A stretch of DNA of 32,000 nt. Source: Aliivibrio fischeri ES114. GTDB lineage: Bacteria > Pseudomonadota > Gammaproteobacteria > Enterobacterales > Vibrionaceae. The position numbers were made by a program, and so were the translations under genes. How positions within the stretch are numbered: position 1 is the stretch's first letter; every line of letters starts with the position of its first letter. The notes beneath the pieces were generated by a model. The model was not told where the DNA came from. It saw nothing but the letters and a program-made list of their open reading frames with translations, and did not search any database. This document shows positions 2,927 through 16,001 of the stretch, piece after piece. Where the stretch lies: assembly GCF_000011805.1 (NCBI RefSeq), contig NC_006841.2. One strand, 5' to 3'.

Positions 2927-3241
2927 TTACTGCAAACCACGGTCATTGAGAACAAATTGGCGTAACTCGCGCTCTTCCCTCATGACATAAAGAATATATA
3001 CAATATCATCGTTGGTTACTTTGTAAAAAATACGGCATGGTGGCAATACAATTTCACGATAATCTAAATGAGGAAGCTCAGGAACACTACGGCCTGATAA
3101 TGGAAAATCCTCTAAACGCTCAACACGATGGAAAACTGATTGAACTAACGCCTTAGCCGCTAAGATATTATTAATAGCGATATATTCTGCAATTTCGTCC
3201 AAATCTAATAATGCTGATTCAGTCCAATTAATTACAGCCAT
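2927..3241 (-). CDS. parE: Type II toxin, ParE/RelE superfamily (104 aa)
   Basis: About 100 aa. N-terminal W..A..DL.EI.EYI, and C-terminal RIFYKV...IVYILYVMREER, typical of ParE (plasmid stabilisation) toxins. Overlaps the upstream antitoxin gene by 10 nt. Confidence 0.8.
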   Translation of the reverse strand: MAVINWTESALLDLDEIAEYIAINNILAAKALVQSVFHRVERLEDFPLSGRSVPELPHLDYREIVLPPCRIFYKVTNDDIVYILYVMREERELRQFVLNDRGLQ

Positions 3242-3486
3242 TTATTCATCTTCTCTTTTGCGGCTTCATGAGAAACTACACGATTATCTGAAATTGCTTT
3301 TTCACCGCGAGCAATACCTTCAAGAATAGCAATTCGTTTTTGCATAAACTCGTAATCATCAACATCTAACAAATAAGCAGACGGTTGACCGTGCTCTGTA
3401 ATTAACACTGGTTCTTTTGAAGCATGAAGCTCAGAAAGAATCTTGGTTGCTTGACGTTTTAATGTAGTGACTAATTCAACTTTCAT
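3232..3486 (-). CDS. Type II antitoxin, Phd/YefM family (84 aa)
   Basis: N-terminus TLKRQATKILSELHASKEPVLITEHGQPSAYLLDVDDYE is the classic Phd/YefM fold signature. Sits upstream of, and overlaps, the toxin gene. Confidence 0.8.
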   Translation of the reverse strand: MKVELVTTLKRQATKILSELHASKEPVLITEHGQPSAYLLDVDDYEFMQKRIAILEGIARGEKAISDNRVVSHEAAKEKMNKWL

Positions 3487-3514
3487 ATTCAGTTTCCATT
3501 ATCGAAAGAACAAA

Positions 3515-3533
3515 GTATCACTATTGTATCACT
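3515..3533 (-). promoter_or_regulatory. Candidate TA promoter/operator: direct repeat GTATCACT (3515-3522 and 3526-3533) overlapping a minus-strand TACAAT -10 box
   Basis: The minus strand reads AGTGATACAATAGTGATAC, about 30 nt upstream of the antitoxin start. Type II TA operons are normally autoregulated at such repeats. Confidence 0.35.
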
Positions 3534-3557
3534 TAATTAGCCATTGAGACAGTTCAT

Positions 3558-3659
3558 TTAACGCTTGCATAACACGTGCTAACGACCAACTTTACCAAAC
3601 CAATTACACTTCAAACCAAAAACGCCGAATGTTATAAGCATCGTGTTGATGCGATTGTT
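3558..3659 (-). repeat. attC site, short subtype S, 102 bp (ends TTGTTG rather than TTGTTA)
   Basis: TAACGCTTGCATAACACGTGCTAAC ... GTTATAAGCATCGTGTTGATGCGATTGTTG. Confidence 0.85.
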
Positions 3660-4118
3660 GTGCGGACTTACTTTCGGCTTAGCTAACTTGGTAAAGAACT
3701 GCTCCACCAAGATTTTCTAAGCCCTGATTTTAATTTAACGATGCCGATTAAGCGAACAAAATGTTCTTAAATTGCGAGATAAAGTAAATGGAAAACAGAT
3801 ACATTTTTTACGCCATTTGAACGACTTGGGTTCAGCTAGTTTGGAACTAAAAAACCAAATATATTAGCCACAACTGGGATTGAAAATATTGCGAGGCAAA
3901 CACTAATGCAGGCTAAAATGAGGCAACACTAAAGAACCATTGAAGCGTAAAATAGCCTCTGAAACGCCTGAATTTAGCCCGACAATGCTTAATTGCCGAA
4001 CCTGATGAAAAGAACACTAAAAGGCAACAAAGAAGAGGATTTGTGATAGCTAAATAGCGTTTAAAAATGTCTCATTTCTATTGAGAAACCGTGCAAAAAT
4101 TTTCGGACTCAGTACGCA
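3660..4118. other. ORF-less integron cassette, paralog family copy 1 of 3 (candidate noncoding RNA or regulatory cassette)
   Basis: No ORF of 60 aa or more in any frame. Alignable by eye to 8962-9422 and 11901-12360. Short ATG frames are not conserved between the copies. Confidence 0.6.
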
Positions 4119-4236: not shown

Positions 4237-4330
4237 AATGCCACTTACCATTAGATTATTGTTAGCAACCATGGAGCTTTTATTTTACAATGACACTACG
4301 ACTATAGAGTTAACTAAAGGATTGATTATT

Positions 4331-5500
4331 ATGAATTATATAAAAATGAGAGATTTGAGAATTGATGGTGATAATTATTTGATGCAAGTAAAGATTAAGG
4401 ACTATCTAGATATATCTCGCCATATTTTAAAGAAAAATGAGTTTCAAAGACGACGAGTCAGAGCAGCAAAGAGCGTGTACTCTCTACTTAAAGAAGATCT
4501 TATTAAGGGTTGTGTTATCCCGCCAATATCTCTAGCACTAAATAAGACATCGGAAACATTTGAGTCCCAACTTAATGATGGCATATCAGGTGCACTATTA
4601 ACTAATGTGGATAACTTATTAATACTTGATGGATTGCAAAGAACATATTCTTTGATAGACATCGAAAAAGATTTACAAGCAGAGTATGGCTTAGAAAGTT
4701 CTGAGATTGAAAACTTTTACAACCACCAAATTCGATTAGAAATTTATTCCGGGTTAAACAAGATAGGCATTTTATATAGAATGCTAACGCTTAATACGGG
4801 GCAAACACCAATGTCATTAAGACAACAAGTTGAAATGCTATACCTTGATTATGCAGATATTGATATAGATGGTATCGAGATAGTAAAAGAATCGGAAAGT
4901 CGAAGCGCTACACAATACCATCAATATAACTTTAAAGAAATTGTTGAAGGTTTTAATTCTTACATTGAAAGAAACGAATTACCAATTGCTAGACAAGACA
5001 TTTTGGACAACATTAAAGGGCTAGAGAAATTAGCACACGAAAATAGTGGTGAAGATATTTTTAAAGAATACTTGGAATCACTTCACCACTTCATTGATAA
5101 ACTGAACAATTTGACCAATGGTTATGAACTTGATAGTGAATATTACGATATTTCATTCGGTGCCAGTACCACAAAAATATTCAAGAGATCTCAATCATTT
5201 ACTGGTTTTGGTGCTGCAATTGGAAAATTAAAAGACAATGGGAGTGTTTCTGGTCTTTCAGATGTCATACCTTTAATTGATCAGTTAAACTTAAGCGCTG
5301 ATGACTCAGAAGAACTTTTAAGTAAATTGAATGACAATTTTAATTGGATAAAAGATCATTCTAGCAAAATTGGTAACGCGCAAAGAAACTATTTACACTT
5401 TTTCTATAGAGAGTTATTCAATCAAGACAGTGAATCTTACCTAGACCTACTAAAATCAGCGACCACAGCATTTAACCGATATAACAGCCTGTATAACTAG
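4331..5500 (+). CDS. ParB/sulfiredoxin-fold DGQHR-type protein (DUF262/DndB-like), 389 aa; gene A of a two-gene cassette
   Basis: Ordered motifs: EFQRRRV (4442-4450), a hydrophobic IPPISLA segment, LILDGLQRTYS (DGLQR at 4628-4642), then LTLNTGQTPMSLRQQ. The start is moved from the tracked 4238, which abuts the attC, to ATG 4331, which follows AAAGGA. Confidence 0.6.
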   Translation: MNYIKMRDLRIDGDNYLMQVKIKDYLDISRHILKKNEFQRRRVRAAKSVYSLLKEDLIKGCVIPPISLALNKTSETFESQLNDGISGALLTNVDNLLILDGLQRTYSLIDIEKDLQAEYGLESSEIENFYNHQIRLEIYSGLNKIGILYRMLTLNTGQTPMSLRQQVEMLYLDYADIDIDGIEIVKESESRSATQYHQYNFKEIVEGFNSYIERNELPIARQDILDNIKGLEKLAHENSGEDIFKEYLESLHHFIDKLNNLTNGYELDSEYYDISFGASTTKIFKRSQSFTGFGAAIGKLKDNGSVSGLSDVIPLIDQLNLSADDSEELLSKLNDNFNWIKDHSSKIGNAQRNYLHFFYRELFNQDSESYLDLLKSATTAFNRYNSLYN

Positions 5501-5516
5501 TGTAAGGTTTTTATAT

Positions 5517-6542
5517 ATGAATTATGTATCAGGTGAAGGCTATGAAGTTGGAGAGACATTATTTTCAACAGATATAAAGCTTTCCCCTTGCTCTGACTTT
5601 AAAAACTTTACAATATTTAGAGCCTATTGTAGAAAGTTTAATGAAATTGATATAAAGCAAATTAAGATTGATGATGACGATTGTGGTTTTTTGATTCCAT
5701 CATTTAGTTTACTTTCTCAAGATCATGACTACTCTTCTAAAGGAAATTTTCAAGTATTTAGTGATGCTATTATAAAGTGGCACCTTAGCAACTTAGATAC
5801 AGAAAACCTTAAAAGTGAAGTTCCACTAGATAGTTTTTTTAATGAAAACCTCGGTTTTATTGCTATATCCAATCGCAATTATTCCAACTCTAAAGATAAG
5901 GAGCGAAAGATATTCTTTGAGTTGATTAACGCTGGCATTTATGTCGATATTTTACATAAAAGCCCTAGCTTTTATACAGAAAACCCTTTGTTCCCTAATA
6001 AAAATCTACCTAGCACTAAGAGGATTACATTTAAGACGACATCTAATAAGGCGATATTAGATGAGTTTATCTGTGACATTTTCAATTCGATTATTTTTAA
6101 TGAAACTGACCACTTTTTACAATTTTTCTATTTATATCAAGTTGTAGAAACTCTTATTGAATTTGTCATGTCACAGGAATACTCTAAAGTTATGACCAAA
6201 ATTAATGATCTTGGGGGAGGTGTTTCTACTCAACAATTAAAGAAGTTAGTAGAAACATTGAACGAAAGTGTGCAGGAAAGAAAGAGAATTAACAAATTGT
6301 GCAATGAATACACTGACACCTATAATGACAGTTTCAATATTCAACAGAGCCTATTTGATTTCATTAAGCAAAATTTAAACTCTGATTTTGAAGTAAATAA
6401 TGATATCGGATCATGTATTTATGAGATAAGGAACAAGTCTTTTCACGAATTTAGAACGTTACGTAATGCCACAAAATTATCATCAATAACACCGCATGTT
6501 TTCGATTATATTCTGCACTTAATTACTAGCTACAAACATTAA
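5517..6542 (+). CDS. Uncharacterised protein with a C-terminal HEPN-like domain (Rx4H motif), 341 aa; gene B of the two-gene cassette
   Basis: EIRNKSFHE (R305-H310, nt 6429-6446) lies in a predicted all-helical C-terminal third. The first ~190 aa show no motif I recognise. TAAGG SD 9 nt upstream of the start; 16-nt gap after gene A. Confidence 0.5.
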   Translation: MNYVSGEGYEVGETLFSTDIKLSPCSDFKNFTIFRAYCRKFNEIDIKQIKIDDDDCGFLIPSFSLLSQDHDYSSKGNFQVFSDAIIKWHLSNLDTENLKSEVPLDSFFNENLGFIAISNRNYSNSKDKERKIFFELINAGIYVDILHKSPSFYTENPLFPNKNLPSTKRITFKTTSNKAILDEFICDIFNSIIFNETDHFLQFFYLYQVVETLIEFVMSQEYSKVMTKINDLGGGVSTQQLKKLVETLNESVQERKRINKLCNEYTDTYNDSFNIQQSLFDFIKQNLNSDFEVNNDIGSCIYEIRNKSFHEFRTLRNATKLSSITPHVFDYILHLITSYKH

Positions 6543-7818: not shown

Positions 7819-7939
7819 TAACGCCTGCATAACACGTTTGCTACGATACAGACTTACCTGAATTTTACTGCCTTAATCACTGAAACTAAAGGCAAACTGA
7901 CAACGCCGAGTGTAGCAAATCGTGTTGATGCATTTGTTA
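7819..7939 (-). repeat. attC site, subtype A2, 121 bp
   Basis: TAACGCCTGCATAACACGTTTGCTAC ... GTAGCAAATCGTGTTGATGCATTTGTTA. Confidence 0.9.
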
Positions 7940-8824
7940 TATTGCTGGTCTATGGTCTTCTTTGTTAGGAGGGATCATTGCTGATGTCCATTTTAATATT
8001 ACTGATAATCCATTCCAATTTCGCAGTCTTTCTTGATAAAGAAGTTCAGTAACATAATTACTTAATTTTTCGTCATCAAGCTCAGGGTTAAGATTATTTT
8101 CTTTAATAACATGAAATAATGCTGTCGCTCTTTTTTTACGAAACTTAACATCAGATTTATGAGAAAAAAGAGAAACCGCAGGCATAATAAACATACCTGT
8201 AACCACAACTACAATAAGAACAAAACTAAGCATAAACAACACTAACCAAGAAGTAGTTTTAATTGAATCTCGACTACTTGAAGGACTATTATCTATGTCA
8301 TATTCTCTAGTATCAATACCAATTGCAGACACTTTTACTTTGGGTTCTTCTGTTCCTTCAAAAAGAAGCCGCAATTGTAATCCCGGTTCAGGTCCATCAA
8401 CTCGATTAATTGCTTGAGCAATAAAATTGAAATAGTATTTGTTACCATCAAATACCATTTTCTTTGTTTGTATAACAGAGTCTGTCGTTTCGTGCTCACC
8501 TACTACCGCATGTGCTAATACCTTAAATTCTTTTACATTTTCTGGCTCTATAATTATAGTCACTGGCAGGTCAAGTAAATCTTTAGTCGAAAAGTTAACC
8601 AACGATACATACATGATGCCAATCTTTTCTTTTTCTGCATTATTAACGATTAGTCTTATTTCATCATCAGGAAACTTAGGCTTTGAGAAATAATTACTTT
8701 CAAATTTCTTATGGATATCTAATTTTGGAACTTTAACTTGCTCCAAATATAGTAAATAACCAATCACCGCAGTAAAAATTGCAGTTAAAGTACAAGAGAA
8801 AACGACTCTCCATATTCCATTCAT
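7937..8824 (-). CDS. Membrane protein, 295 aa: N-terminal TM, ~170-aa middle domain, second long hydrophobic segment, charged C-terminal tail
   Basis: Hydrophobic stretches VVFSCTLTAIFTAVIGYLLYL and WLVLFMLSFVLIVVVVTGMFIMPAVSLF. No family recognised. The stop overlaps the attC end. Confidence 0.6.
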   Translation of the reverse strand: MNGIWRVVFSCTLTAIFTAVIGYLLYLEQVKVPKLDIHKKFESNYFSKPKFPDDEIRLIVNNAEKEKIGIMYVSLVNFSTKDLLDLPVTIIIEPENVKEFKVLAHAVVGEHETTDSVIQTKKMVFDGNKYYFNFIAQAINRVDGPEPGLQLRLLFEGTEEPKVKVSAIGIDTREYDIDNSPSSSRDSIKTTSWLVLFMLSFVLIVVVVTGMFIMPAVSLFSHKSDVKFRKKRATALFHVIKENNLNPELDDEKLSNYVTELLYQERLRNWNGLSVILKWTSAMIPPNKEDHRPAI

Positions 8825-8860
8825 CGATTTTAAACTCCTTCTATAATCTCAAGAGCAATA

Positions 8861-8961
8861 TAACGCCACAATAACACGTGCGAAAGACTGACTTACAAAA
8901 CCAATTATACTCCAAACCGCGAATGCCGAATGTAAATAGCATCGTGTTGATTGCTTTGTTA
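8861..8961 (-). repeat. attC site, short subtype S, 101 bp
   Basis: TAACGCCACAATAACACGTGCGAAAG ... GTAAATAGCATCGTGTTGATTGCTTTGTTA. Confidence 0.88.
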
Positions 8962-9422
8962 TACGAGCCTTGCTTTCGCTCCAATTAACTTGGTAAAGAA
9001 CTGATTTACCAAGATTTGCTGTAAACTGAGTTTAATTAGACTGGCTCAATTAAGCGAGCAAAATATCCAACCAACAACAATAATTGTGAAACGAAACAAT
9101 CCCTTTTTCTTACACTATTTGTACGATTTGGTTTCATCAACTTCTGAGCTAATAAACCAAATATCCTAACCACAATTGGGATTGAAAATGCTGCGAGGAA
9201 AACACTGATGCAGGCTAAAATGAGGCAAAACCATGAACAATTGAAGCGTAAATTAGTTTCTGAAACGCCTGAATTTGGGGCAATAATAGTTCAATGCCGA
9301 ACCTGATGAAACGAACACTAAAAGGCAACAAAGAAAAAGGAAAACCACCTTACTTTCACACCTAAAAAACTAATGGTTCAATCGCTGAACTGAACCAAAA
9401 AACTGCATTCTCAGAGTTCGTA
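8962..9422. other. ORF-less integron cassette, paralog family copy 2 of 3
   Basis: No tracked ORF. Shares a conserved core (about 9170-9340: CCACAATTGGGATTGAAAATGCTGCGAGG...AAAAGGCAACAAAGAA) and a 25-nt hairpin at 8989-9013 with the other two copies. Confidence 0.6.
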
Positions 9423-10102: not shown

Positions 10103-10223
10103 TAACGCCGCAATAACACGTTTATTACTACGACAACTTAGCTAAATTTTACTGCCTTAAACACTGAAACCAAAGAGAAACCTACAACGCCGAATGTAAT
10201 AAATCGTGTTGATTACTTTGTTA
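10103..10223 (-). repeat. attC site, subtype C, 121 bp
   Basis: TAACGCCGCAATAACACGTTTATTAC ... GTAATAAATCGTGTTGATTACTTTGTTA. Confidence 0.9.
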
Positions 10224-10271
10224 TGCGGCACAAATAAAATTAATTGTGTGGAACCAAGATACTACCCGCAG

Positions 10272-10300
10272 TTACATTAACCAAAAACGGTTACGATACT
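10272..10300 (+). promoter_or_regulatory. Candidate sigma70 promoter for the reverse-oriented cassette gene (TTACAT-17-GATACT)
   Basis: Hexamers at 10272-10277 and 10295-10300. Both hexamers and the spacing are conserved in the paralogous cassette (12530-12558). Confidence 0.35.
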
Positions 10301-10329
10301 TAAAATTTGCACAAAACTAAGAGAACAGA

Positions 10330-10632
10330 ATGGATGCTATTGCTCATTTAATTATCATTTTAGGGAATCCATTTGTATATAAAATTGGACATCTAATTAT
10401 TTCAATTTTAAGCATTGGTAAATTGTCCATTCAACCATTACCAACTAAATTTTCCGCTAATTTTGTGCAAGCGTTTGACGAAGATAAAATCGTAGAAAGT
10501 CAAAATAAACAAAACTACTCAATCTCATATGTAATTGCCCTTACCATTGGTTACGCTGTAACTATAGCTATCTTTGGAACCCTATTATTTTATAATATCG
10601 ATAGTTTTATTGAAGCTCAATCATCGAACTAA
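10330..10632 (+). CDS. Small membrane protein, 100 aa (paralog of 12588-12890), oriented against the array
   Basis: Hydrophobic N-terminal (IAHLIIILGNPFVYKIGHLIISILSIG) and C-terminal (VIALTIGYAVTIAIFGTLLF) segments. AAGAGAA SD-like stretch upstream. Confidence 0.65.
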   Translation: MDAIAHLIIILGNPFVYKIGHLIISILSIGKLSIQPLPTKFSANFVQAFDEDKIVESQNKQNYSISYVIALTIGYAVTIAIFGTLLFYNIDSFIEAQSSN

Positions 10633-11234: not shown

Positions 11235-11261
11235 GAAATCCTCTTAACTATTTTCGCAATA

Positions 11262-11380
11262 TAACACCTGCATAACACGTTTGCTACCATGCAGATTAAG
11301 CTTAAATTTACCACTTAACGCGGCAAACCCAAAGAAATCTAGAATGCCGAATGTAGCAAATCGTGTTGATGCATTTGTTA
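11262..11380 (-). repeat. attC site, subtype A, 119 bp (starts TAACACC)
   Basis: TAACACCTGCATAACACGTTTGCTAC ... GTAGCAAATCGTGTTGATGCATTTGTTA. Confidence 0.88.
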
Positions 11381-11471
11381 TACGTGTCTACTTTAGTTTG
11401 AATAAGCATATATACAAAACTTAATATAAATTACATCTTATCACAGCTAAAACAACACAAGAGATATGAAT

Positions 11472-11503
11472 AAAAAAAGGGCTCGATGACTGGAATCGAA
11501 CCC
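11472..11503 (-). terminator. Rho-independent terminator (minus strand), unit A
   Basis: Minus strand GGGTTCGAT-TCCAGTC-ATCGAGCCC followed by TTTTTTT. 9-bp stem with one G-U pair. Confidence 0.7.
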
Positions 11504-11627
11504 TGAACGTGAAATGCCTGTCTACAGCAGCACAAAAATTATGAGGAGCTCCAGTTTATTACTGGAATCACTCTTAACCAACTGTAAAATAAGACAGGTT
11601 TGTTTTTAACGCTACCCCCCTCGGCAC

Positions 11628-11662
11628 AAAAAAAAGGGACTCATTGGCTAAAATTGAGTCCC
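11628..11662 (-). terminator. Rho-independent terminator (minus strand), unit B
   Basis: Minus strand GGGACTCA-(11-nt loop)-TGAGTCCC followed by TTTTTTTT. Confidence 0.7.
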
Positions 11663-11799
11663 AGACATGAAATGCTTGTCTACAGCAACACATAAGTAAG
11701 GAGTGACTACGATTTTATTACATTGACACTGCCTTACTAACTGTAAAATCAGGTAGGTTACTATTAAATATTTATAATTTGGACGTCATTGATTTCGTA

Positions 11800-11900
11800 T
11801 AACGCCGCAATAACACGTGCGAACGACTTACTTTCCAAACCAATTATACTTCAAACCACAAACGCCGAGTGTAATTAGCATCGTGTTGATTGCTTTGTTA
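11800..11900 (-). repeat. attC site, short subtype S, 101 bp
   Basis: TAACGCCGCAATAACACGTGCGAAC ... GTAATTAGCATCGTGTTGATTGCTTTGTTA. Confidence 0.88.
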
Positions 11901-12360
11901 CACGATCTTTGTCAACGCTTCGCTTTAATTGGTAAAGAACTGATTTACCAATAATATTTAGAAACCAATTCTAAATTACAAAAGCTAATTTAGCGAACAA
12001 AAGAACCGTTCAACTACAAAAACTGCGAAACGAAACAATCCTTTTTCTAGCACCATTTGTACGATTTAGTATCAGCAAGTTTGGAGCTGATAAATCAAAT
12101 ATCTTTGCCACAATTGGGATTGATAATGTTGTGAGGAAAACACTGATGCAGGATAAAATGAGGCATAACCAAAGAACAATTGAAGCGTAAAAATATCTCT
12201 GAAACGCCTGAACTTAGATCGACAATAGTCAATTGCCGAACCAAATGAAATGAAAGCTAAAAGGAAACAAAGAAGAAGGAAAACTACCCTACTTTAACAT
12301 CTAAAAATCGAATGGTTCTATCGCTGAACTGAGCCAAAAAACTGCAATCTTTAGTTCGTG
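11901..12360. other. ORF-less integron cassette, paralog family copy 3 of 3
   Basis: No tracked ORF. Alignable to copies 1 and 2. Hairpin at 11928-11952 carries a compensatory end pair (A...T instead of C...G). Confidence 0.6.
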
Positions 12361-12481
12361 TAACGCCGCAATAACACGTTTATTACTACGACGACTTAGC
12401 TGAATTTTACCGCCTTAAACACCTAAACCAAAGACAAACCTACAACGCCGAATGTAATAAATCGTGTTGATTGCTTTGTTA
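12361..12481 (-). repeat. attC site, subtype C, 121 bp; identical by eye to 10642-10762
   Basis: Same 121-nt string as 10642-10762. Confidence 0.9.
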
Positions 12482-12587
12482 TGCGGCACAAATAAAATTA
12501 ATAGTGTGGAACCAAGGTACTACCCACAGTTACATTAACCAAAAATGGTTACGATACTTAAAACTTGCACAAAACTAAGAGAACAGA

Positions 12588-12890
12588 ATGGATGCTATTG
12601 CTCATTTAATTATCATTTTAGGGAATCCATTTGCATATAAAATTGGACACCTAATTATTTCAATTTTAAGTCTTGGTAAATTGTCCATTCAACCATTACC
12701 AACTAAATTTTCTGCTAATTTCGTGCAAGCCTTTGACGAAGATAAGGTCGTAGAAAACCAAAATAAACAAAACTACTCAATATCATATGGAGTTACCCTT
12801 TCCATTGGTTACGCTGTAACTATAGCTATCCTTGGAACCCTATTATTTTATAATATTGATAGTTTTATTGAAGCTCAAACATCAGAATAA
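12588..12890 (+). CDS. Small membrane protein, 100 aa (paralog of 10330-10632)
   Basis: 89 of 100 residues identical to the other copy (11 substitutions counted by hand). The upstream promoter-like and SD region is conserved. Confidence 0.65.
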   Translation: MDAIAHLIIILGNPFAYKIGHLIISILSLGKLSIQPLPTKFSANFVQAFDEDKVVENQNKQNYSISYGVTLSIGYAVTIAILGTLLFYNIDSFIEAQTSE

Positions 12891-15017: not shown

Positions 15018-16001
15018 ATGGATATCCCATTAGATCTTAAACCAGATTCACAACGCTTCACCGATCAACTTCGAATTTTCATTCGAACACGTGCGCTAGC
15101 CTATAATACAGAGAAACAATACATATATTGGATAAGTTGCTTTATTCGTCATAACAACTACACATCAAAAGACGAAATTAACGCCTTTGATATACCAGCC
15201 TACCTTGAGCACTTAGTCGTAAAACAGAACGTATCGCCAAATACCCAAAAAACCGCGTTAAACGCACTCATATTTTTATGTCGCGAATACCTACAACAAT
15301 CAGTCGATAACCTTGAATTTAAACGTTCTAAAAAAGCCACTAAATTGCCAACTGTATTTACTCATGGTGAAGCCATCTCCGTTATAAATGAACTTAACCA
15401 CCCCACTAAGCTGATTGCACAACTTATGTATGGGAGCGGTTTACGAATAAACGAAGCATTAAGGCTAAGAGTAGATGACATCGATCTTATCCATAAAACC
15501 ATCACCATAAGAAATGGGAAAGGTAATAAAGACAGGACTACTGTACTACCCGAGAGCATCATTCCAGAGCTTAAAACGCAACTCGAGTTTGTAAAACAAC
15601 AACATAAAATGGATGCAATAAACGGGGATGATGAAGTTTATCTACCTAATGCCATTGCAAAAAAATACCCTCACAGAGCAAAAAGTTATGGTTGGCAATA
15701 TGTGTTTCCTTCAAAACAGATCAGCAAAGATCCACGTTCAGGTCAGCATCGTCGACACCACATGTTAGATAGAAGCGTTCAAAAACAAGTAACCAATGCA
15801 ATAAAAAAACTTGAGATAGATAAGAAAGCCAGCAGCCACACATTTAGGCATAGCTTTGCGACACGAATTTTAGAACGGGGTGGAGATCTAAGGACAATAC
15901 AAGAATTATTGGGTCATTCTGATATCAAAACGACCCAAATTTATACTCACGTAATAGGCTTACACTTCTCAGGAACGAAAAGCCCATTAGACTTTGATTA
16001 A
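15018..16001 (+). CDS. intIA: Integron integrase IntI (tyrosine recombinase), 327 aa, apparently intact
   Basis: IntI-specific insertion ...[41 protein letters not shown]... C-terminal box [41 protein letters not shown]. Divergent from the cassette array. Confidence 0.93.

Follow-up and report, generated by a model that had tools for sequence, protein, structure and literature searches.

The three ORF-less units found in the window, by which we mean the whole 32,000-nt stretch of Aliivibrio fischeri ES114 DNA that was analysed, are paralogous gene-less cassettes of a sedentary chromosomal integron, and the family to which they belong is non-coding. This finding is already known and is ordinary for Vibrionaceae integrons, and its discovery value is small, as copy 2 had already been cloned and assayed and paralogous non-coding Vibrio cassettes have been described since 2006. 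The modest additions made here are that two published cassettes, F2 and F3, belong to a single family, modular and recombining, that is highly amplified in Aliivibrio superintegrons, and that explicit tests speak against a protein product of this family as well as against a structured RNA. We consider its members to be probably, though with some reserve, promoter cassettes, in which sense transcription is started near the 3' end and the cassettes downstream are expressed. The sequence-only reading, in which the three units were candidate structured noncoding RNAs carried as integron cassettes, is largely refuted here.

The three cassettes, their array and their family

The array lies beside intI, a tyrosine recombinase gene from which it is divergently transcribed, with attC repeats to the left of intI running from ~14274 down to 254. 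Most of the cassette ORFs of the array, GNAT, glyoxalase-like, ASCH, CPT and Phd/ParE genes among them, lie on the minus strand. This, together with the plus-strand position of intI (15018-16001), makes the minus strand the sense strand of the array; since the array reads in this direction, the plus-strand sequence presented in the sequence-only reading is the antisense of the cassette, and the attC belonging to each copy is the one to its left. Starting at attI, the approximate ranks in the array are 5th for copy 3, 10th for copy 2 and 15th for copy 1. Core sites (GTTRRRY / RYYYAAC) were present at both cassette ends as GTT(G/A)T(G/A)C and its inverse, and single-strand folds of the three attCs displayed R''/R' and L''/L' pairing, a bulge and an open central loop. 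The features of the locus are as follows.

15018..16001 (+): intI integron integrase, 327 aa, with Pfam matches to Phage_integrase (E=2.9e-38) and Phage_int_SAM_4 (E=7.8e-19)
3660..4118 (-): cassette body of copy 1, F3-like type, with a different 5' module and a shortened attC-proximal hairpin (three-copy alignment)
8962..9422 (-): cassette body of copy 2, the published gene-less cassette F2 (alignment to the supplementary F2 sequence, PMC11014356)
11901..12360 (-): cassette body of copy 3, cluster 3 subtype (three-copy alignment, BLAST and clustering)
3553..3659 (-): attC of copy 1, short subtype (repeat analysis and fold)
8855..8961 (-): attC of copy 2, short subtype (repeat families D8 and D10; single-strand fold)
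11794..11900 (-): attC of copy 3, short subtype (repeat analysis and fold)
3801-4041 in copy 1, 9103..9341 in copy 2 and 12042-12280 in copy 3 (-): shared core module, ~230-240 nt (alignment)
9364..9397 (-): terminator-like hairpin with a T-run behind it, at the 5' (sense) end of copy 2; F2-type 5' module only
3687-3711 in copy 1, 8989..9013 in copy 2 and 11928-11952 in copy 3 (-): attC-proximal hairpin (alignment and folding)
8916..9018 (-): region with 8 of the 9 published F2 5'-RACE start sites, sense 408-510 (Table S3, PMC11014356)

The three bodies, of 459, 461 and 460 nt, had been described as alignable along most of their length, and they could indeed be aligned in 462 columns with a mean column identity of 84% and a few 1-nt gaps. 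In BLAST comparisons with copy 2, copy 3 was 80.9% identical in an alignment of 439 nt (E=1e-110), and copy 1 was 77.7% identical in one of 355 nt (E=5e-71). That these units are integron cassettes belonging to a retained, diverged, non-coding family was also borne out, with a family far larger than the window shows. All three had further been said to carry the same short attC, as if the whole cassette unit had been propagated; this subtype does flank each of them on the low-coordinate side here (a fourth attC of the short subtype, at 855-960, is part of a GNAT cassette), but across the family at least three attC types accompany the body.

Gene-less cassettes of four Vibrionaceae superintegrons were assayed by Blanco et al. 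(NAR 2024; PMC11014356), and the supplementary sequence of their cassette F2 aligned to positions 9425-8949 (-) of the window with 97.5% identity, 11 of the 12 differences being single-base gaps such as PDF text extraction commonly produces. In the available text of that paper, F2 of V. fischeri ES114 is placed between VF_A0655 and VF_A0656 (PMC11014356). The published cassette F1 was found at 11802-11261 (-) of the window with 99% identity, and these matches identify the locus as the integron on chromosome 2 of ES114 or of a nearly identical strain. Copy 1, which formed a singleton cluster at 85% identity, was 88.6% identical to the published cassette F3; F3 is a paralogue of the copy-1 type, probably positioned further along the array and outside the window. 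The present family and the Blanco promoter cassettes (PMC11014356) have these two identities in common, together with the definition of a gene-less cassette (no ORF above 70 aa), the sense strand, measured promoter activity and, for F2, mapped 5' ends; in agreement with this definition, neither an ORF longer than 210 bp (70 aa) nor a protein homologue was found here. The difference is that F2 and F3 are treated as separate cassettes in the available parts of the paper, in which no mention of paralogy, amplification or modularity was found.

A pattern scan for homologues across species-representative genomes gave 82 stretches, nearly all from Aliivibrio (sifiae, logei, fischeri, finisterrensis and several further species), and 129 unique full-length copies were extracted from the scanned loci. 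Each of four genomes carried at least 20 copies and three more carried at least 10, these counts being lower bounds, and adjacent tandem copies with a spacing of ~560-580 nt were common. Draft Aliivibrio assemblies were often seen to break into cassette-sized contigs (255-600 nt) at family members (loci L004, L014, L020, L022, L023, L026, L059, L061 and others), so that the family repeat is a major cause of fragmentation in superintegron assemblies, and draft copy numbers are underestimates. A Photobacterium lutimaris contig (L037, ~3380-3960) contained a complete member of the F3 type whose attC is of the Aliivibrio type, on which grounds it was rejected as a deep homologue; this copy indicates a recent inter-genus cassette transfer, or contamination. 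An Ignavibacteria locus (L019) was rejected as a chance pattern match, and BLAST of copy 1 against annotated plasmid and phage collections gave no match.

Coding potential and RNA structure

No ORF of 60 aa or more was present in any of the three copies, the longest being 43-49 aa, just as had been stated from the sequence alone. The accompanying statements on shorter frames held equally well: on six-frame translation the frame beginning MQAKMRQ stopped after 8, 32 and 14 codons in the three copies, and the minus-strand frames were interrupted by stops and 1-nt indels.

Among the wider family, sense-strand stop-free stretches of 100-128 codons were seen in some homologues, one open sense frame was hydrophobic, and a few copies have been gene-called as hypothetical or membrane proteins, all of which would fit a small protein gene, a type I toxin or a decayed protein-coding cassette. 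The open frames were, however, two different ones in different copies, neither with a conserved start codon, and the T-rich composition of the strand would itself lower the frequency of stop codons. Diversity across the core had no 3-nt periodicity (permutation p=0.86), a crude dN/dS-like ratio ranged from 0.49 to 1.17 over all six frames, and the indels among copies were nearly all of 1-2 nt, with frame-breaking indels common. Searches against Pfam gave nothing above cut-offs, the single match lying far below its own, and when both long frames were compared with 5.8 billion proteins, the matches were limited to sporadic 'hypothetical protein' calls in Aliivibrio that differed in length, with no domain and no relative outside Aliivibrio. 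A small protein gene was rejected on periodicity, indels, start codons and homology, and a type I toxin was rejected likewise, the hydrophobic frame having neither a conserved start nor periodicity; taken as a whole, the protein reading is highly improbable.

The proposal of an Rfam-type structured non-coding RNA carried as a cassette did not agree with searches and folding. There was no Rfam match in the whole window at the gathering score, and copy 1 gave only chance-level matches at E up to 10. Consensus energies from RNAalifold were near zero on both strands, at -6.6 (sense) and -3.5 (antisense) kcal/mol for the whole body. For 122 core sequences the sense fold reached -3.45 kcal/mol; its covariation term was -0.76, and any double change was seen in only 2 of its 22 predicted pairs. 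The antisense fold of these sequences reached -2.21 kcal/mol with four invariant pairs. When consensus folds were made per subfamily they disagreed, their common element being the pairing of the cassette's R' and R'' ends. Single copies did fold more stably than shuffled sequences (mean z of -2.9 for sense and -2.6 for antisense), in favour of a structured RNA, but values so nearly equal on the two strands point to local inverted repeats and to the R'/R'' end pairing that is common to every cassette. In the best recurrent hairpin of the core 96% of cells pair, and its covariation was reached by 464 of 500 shuffles. A shared structure of the body or of the core was rejected on the consensus folds of both strands, for all copies and per subfamily.

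Some covariation was found in two terminal hairpins, which is the other point in favour of a structured RNA. The first, the attC-proximal hairpin, lay where it had been described in the window, with 9 pairs at 8989-9013, an A-T closing pair at 11928-11952 and a shortened form at 3687-3711. Family-wide, 89.8% of cells pair in this hairpin and its 3' arm TTTACCAAG is nearly invariant; in ~30 variants two inner pairs are G-U, so that pairing is kept only on the sense strand, and the covariation score exceeded all but 7 of 500 shuffles. The closing pair, for which a compensatory double change had been claimed from two of the copies, was C-G in 43 variants and A-U in 7, yet unpaired in 20, and that claim could not be upheld. 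The second, in copy 2, is a 5' hairpin with a ten-pair stem TGGTTCAGTTCAGCGATTGAACCA, followed by TTAGTTTTTT. Across the 37 variants of this F2-type 5' hairpin the stem is paired in 94.6% of cells, with covariation at one pair (C-G in 14, U-A in 14), a result matched by 2 of 500 shuffles. With its G+C-containing stem-loop and a T-run directly after it on the sense strand, the F2-type 5' hairpin is a predicted intrinsic terminator; the terminator-like hairpin was present in 100% of cluster 4 and in ~11% of F3-type copies. Terminators at both ends throughout the family were considered and rejected, only the F2-type 5' module having a convincing one. Support for conserved pairing in the two terminal hairpins is modest to weak, coming in each case from one or two pairs, and we regard the structured-RNA reading overall as extremely improbable.

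Promoter activity and the shared core

In sense orientation, all three ES114 gene-less cassettes gave 27- to 101-fold GFP expression (PMC11014356), in reporter assays that used a multicopy plasmid in V. cholerae and not the native array. The sense promoter activity of F2 and F3 fell between those of the class 1 Pc variants PcW (19-fold) and PcS (525-fold) (PMC11014356). Promoter activity has thus been measured for F2 (copy 2) and F3, and is presumed for copies 1 and 3. By 5' RACE, which as described does not tell primary from processed 5' ends, F2 had ends at positions 239, 408, 430, 440, 455, 466, 474, 490 and 510 (PMC11014356). When these were placed on the window, with a numbering offset of a few bases possible, 8 of the 9 fell between the attC-proximal hairpin and the attC, and position 239 fell at ~9187, in the core. 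The promoters of gene-less cassettes are, according to the paper, not predictable in silico (PMC11014356), and our consensus scans, which are uninformative for promoters of this kind, found no conserved sigma-70 promoter across the family.

In the mechanism that we propose, sense transcription would start mostly in the AT-rich 3' third of the cassette and in the attC, RNA polymerase would then read through the attC into the next cassette, and internal promoter cassettes would in this way express downstream cassettes that are otherwise silent. In F2-type copies the 5' hairpin and T-run may in addition stop read-through from upstream, which would amount to a transcriptional reset; if this arrangement of terminator and promoter is functional, it bears on how long arrays avoid transcriptional silence.

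The 5' ends of F2 lie scattered, and spurious transcription from AT-rich DNA is a possibility that the authors of the study discuss themselves (PMC11014356), so that promoter activity may be incidental and not the selected function. The same two points favour a selfish or neutral repeat, spread by integrase-mediated duplication and recombination with no benefit to the host, in which promoter activity would be a by-product of AT-rich sequence. Against such a by-product stand the lacZ control fragments of similar length, which had no activity, and the position of F2 and F3 among the strongest cassettes in the available data (PMC11014356). Since the promoter region lies outside the shared core, promoter function also does not explain why the core is the part that is shared.

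Between the two main cassette types the core differed by 8-13% and the flanks by ~50%, and the body was found in several combinations of 5', 3' and attC modules. Pairs of copies with nearly identical 5' flanks still differed by ~10% in the core, and these included copies from long contigs. The core variants were mostly biallelic; 1 of 78 informative core sites was near-fixed between flank types, with 56 of the 78 polymorphic in both, and in the four-gamete test all four combinations were present for 52-73% of site pairs, rising with distance. The density of singleton (recent private) mutations did not differ significantly between core and flank (ratio 0.95-1.20), and 49 invariant core columns were observed where 68 were expected under uniform scatter. 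A comparison of diversity within clusters is biased, because the clusters were defined by their flanks. On the strength of the flank and core divergence, the module combinations, the reshuffled sites and the lack of excess invariance, we conclude that the core is a shared module set on alternative flank modules, with its polymorphisms reshuffled by recombination or gene conversion among paralogues. The family thus evolves as a mosaic, in which a core of ~230 nt is joined to one or another 5', 3' and attC module and recombination or gene conversion redistributes the core polymorphisms.

No site-specific constraint such as a functional RNA or a binding platform should show was detectable in the core by the singleton, invariant-column and four-gamete tests, and on these tests the core as a constrained element was rejected as unproven. 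The patchiness of conservation, which had been read from three copies as a sign of RNA or DNA structure, lost that meaning when invariant columns proved fewer than expected, singletons no rarer and polymorphisms reshuffled. A diversity-generating mechanism acting at the variable core sites was considered and dropped, as these sites are mostly biallelic, of mixed types and with linkage that falls with distance.

The absence of detectable site-specific constraint and the extensive reshuffling are what a selfish or neutral repeat would lead one to expect, as is a family that, but for one transferred copy, stays within a single genus, and this explanation was proposed for non-coding Vibrio cassettes by Boucher et al. 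(BMC Evol Biol 2006; PMC1382264). The body occurs, however, with several attC types, so that a single efficient attC does not explain its spread, and useless cassettes are easily excised, yet several species have kept at least 20 copies. We judge the selfish or neutral repeat, which is the main rival, to be rather unlikely, and promoter cassettes remain the reading that we prefer; since the two differ only in whether the activity is selected, they are not separable by the data here.

The non-coding Vibrio cassettes described in PMC1382264 are paralogous, conserved and clade-restricted, and were proposed either to be selfish or to supply promoters or RNAs, with gene conversion also proposed. 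ES114 is listed there with 36 cassettes, 7 of them non-coding, and one non-coding family has 45 copies in V. vulnificus CMCP6 (PMC1382264). Those families resemble the present one in being ORF-less and highly paralogous, in having close homologues within their clade only and in having no BLASTX relatives, but they are of other sequence, the present family being Aliivibrio-specific, and tests of coding, structure and constraint were run explicitly here on 122-129 copies. ORF-less cassettes from Treponema and an oral metagenome likewise drive reporter expression in the available account of Tansirichaiya et al. (Sci Rep 2019; PMC6557892), and are unrelated in sequence to the Aliivibrio family.

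The core could instead be part of a trans- or cis-acting element that works by its sequence, such as a core-derived base-pairing RNA or a protein-bound DNA platform that regulates the integron. It is the only part common to all cassette types and is kept across species, the 3' arm CAGTTCTTTACCAAG hardly varies, in contrast to its partner arm, and the published 5' end at position 239 lies inside the core. Core columns showed no excess invariance, however, new mutations were as frequent there as in the flanks, and such an element has no known target or binding partner, and we therefore consider it very unlikely. A fuller version, in which the family is a purpose-built transcriptional reset with a 5' terminator, a 3' promoter and a core with a sequence-dependent role, maintained by selection at 20 or more copies per genome, is decidedly unlikely; the core would in that case act, for instance, as a base-pairing RNA or as a platform to which proteins bind, tuning the expression of the integron or its recombination.

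Small RNAs in integrons and neighbouring cassettes

Integron-borne small RNAs exist, for example sRNA-Xcc1 of Xanthomonas, and type I toxin-antitoxin loci have been reported in the V. cholerae superintegron. These are like the Aliivibrio family in that integron cassettes carry non-protein or very small products, but the Aliivibrio family is without a defined promoter-to-terminator unit, a conserved small ORF or a conserved fold. The neighbouring cassette F1 fits the pattern of small RNAs and type I loci better than the Aliivibrio family does. F1 (11261-11802, -) is ORF-less and contains two diverged direct repeats of ~74 nt (11472-11545 and 11630-11703), each of which ends, in the sense direction, in a G+C-rich hairpin followed by 7-8 T (11504-11478, and the second near 11662-11636). 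The sense starts given for F1 in the available published data, at 35 and at 191-197, lie ~140 nt upstream of each of these putative terminators, and F1 had no Rfam or tRNA match. From these sequence features F1 looks like two tandem small-RNA units, and would be a better sRNA candidate than the ~460-bp family.

Directly upstream of copy 1 in the sense direction is a two-gene cassette (4238-6542, +) that runs against the array; its genes encode 420 and 341 aa, and neither product had a Pfam match above the curated cut-off. Two further cassettes, 10103-10402 and 12361-12660, were 95% identical over 300 nt, and each has a plus-strand ORF of 100 aa, antisense to the array and with no Pfam match; one of this pair is directly upstream of copy 3. 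A DUF3644 / restriction-endonuclease-like gene (1572-2777, -) is seemingly split into two ORFs, with positions 1-26 of the DUF3644 profile matched by ORF 2406-2777 and the remaining positions by ORF 1572-2393, which suggests a frameshifted pseudogene in a cassette, or a sequencing error. Cassettes downstream of the copies include a 295-aa ORF (7937-8824) and F1 with the ASCH gene. The cassette directly downstream of copy 1 in the sense direction holds a Phd/YefM antitoxin and ParE toxin pair (2927-3486, -), and this toxin-antitoxin module would receive transcription from copy 1 if that copy acts as a promoter cassette.
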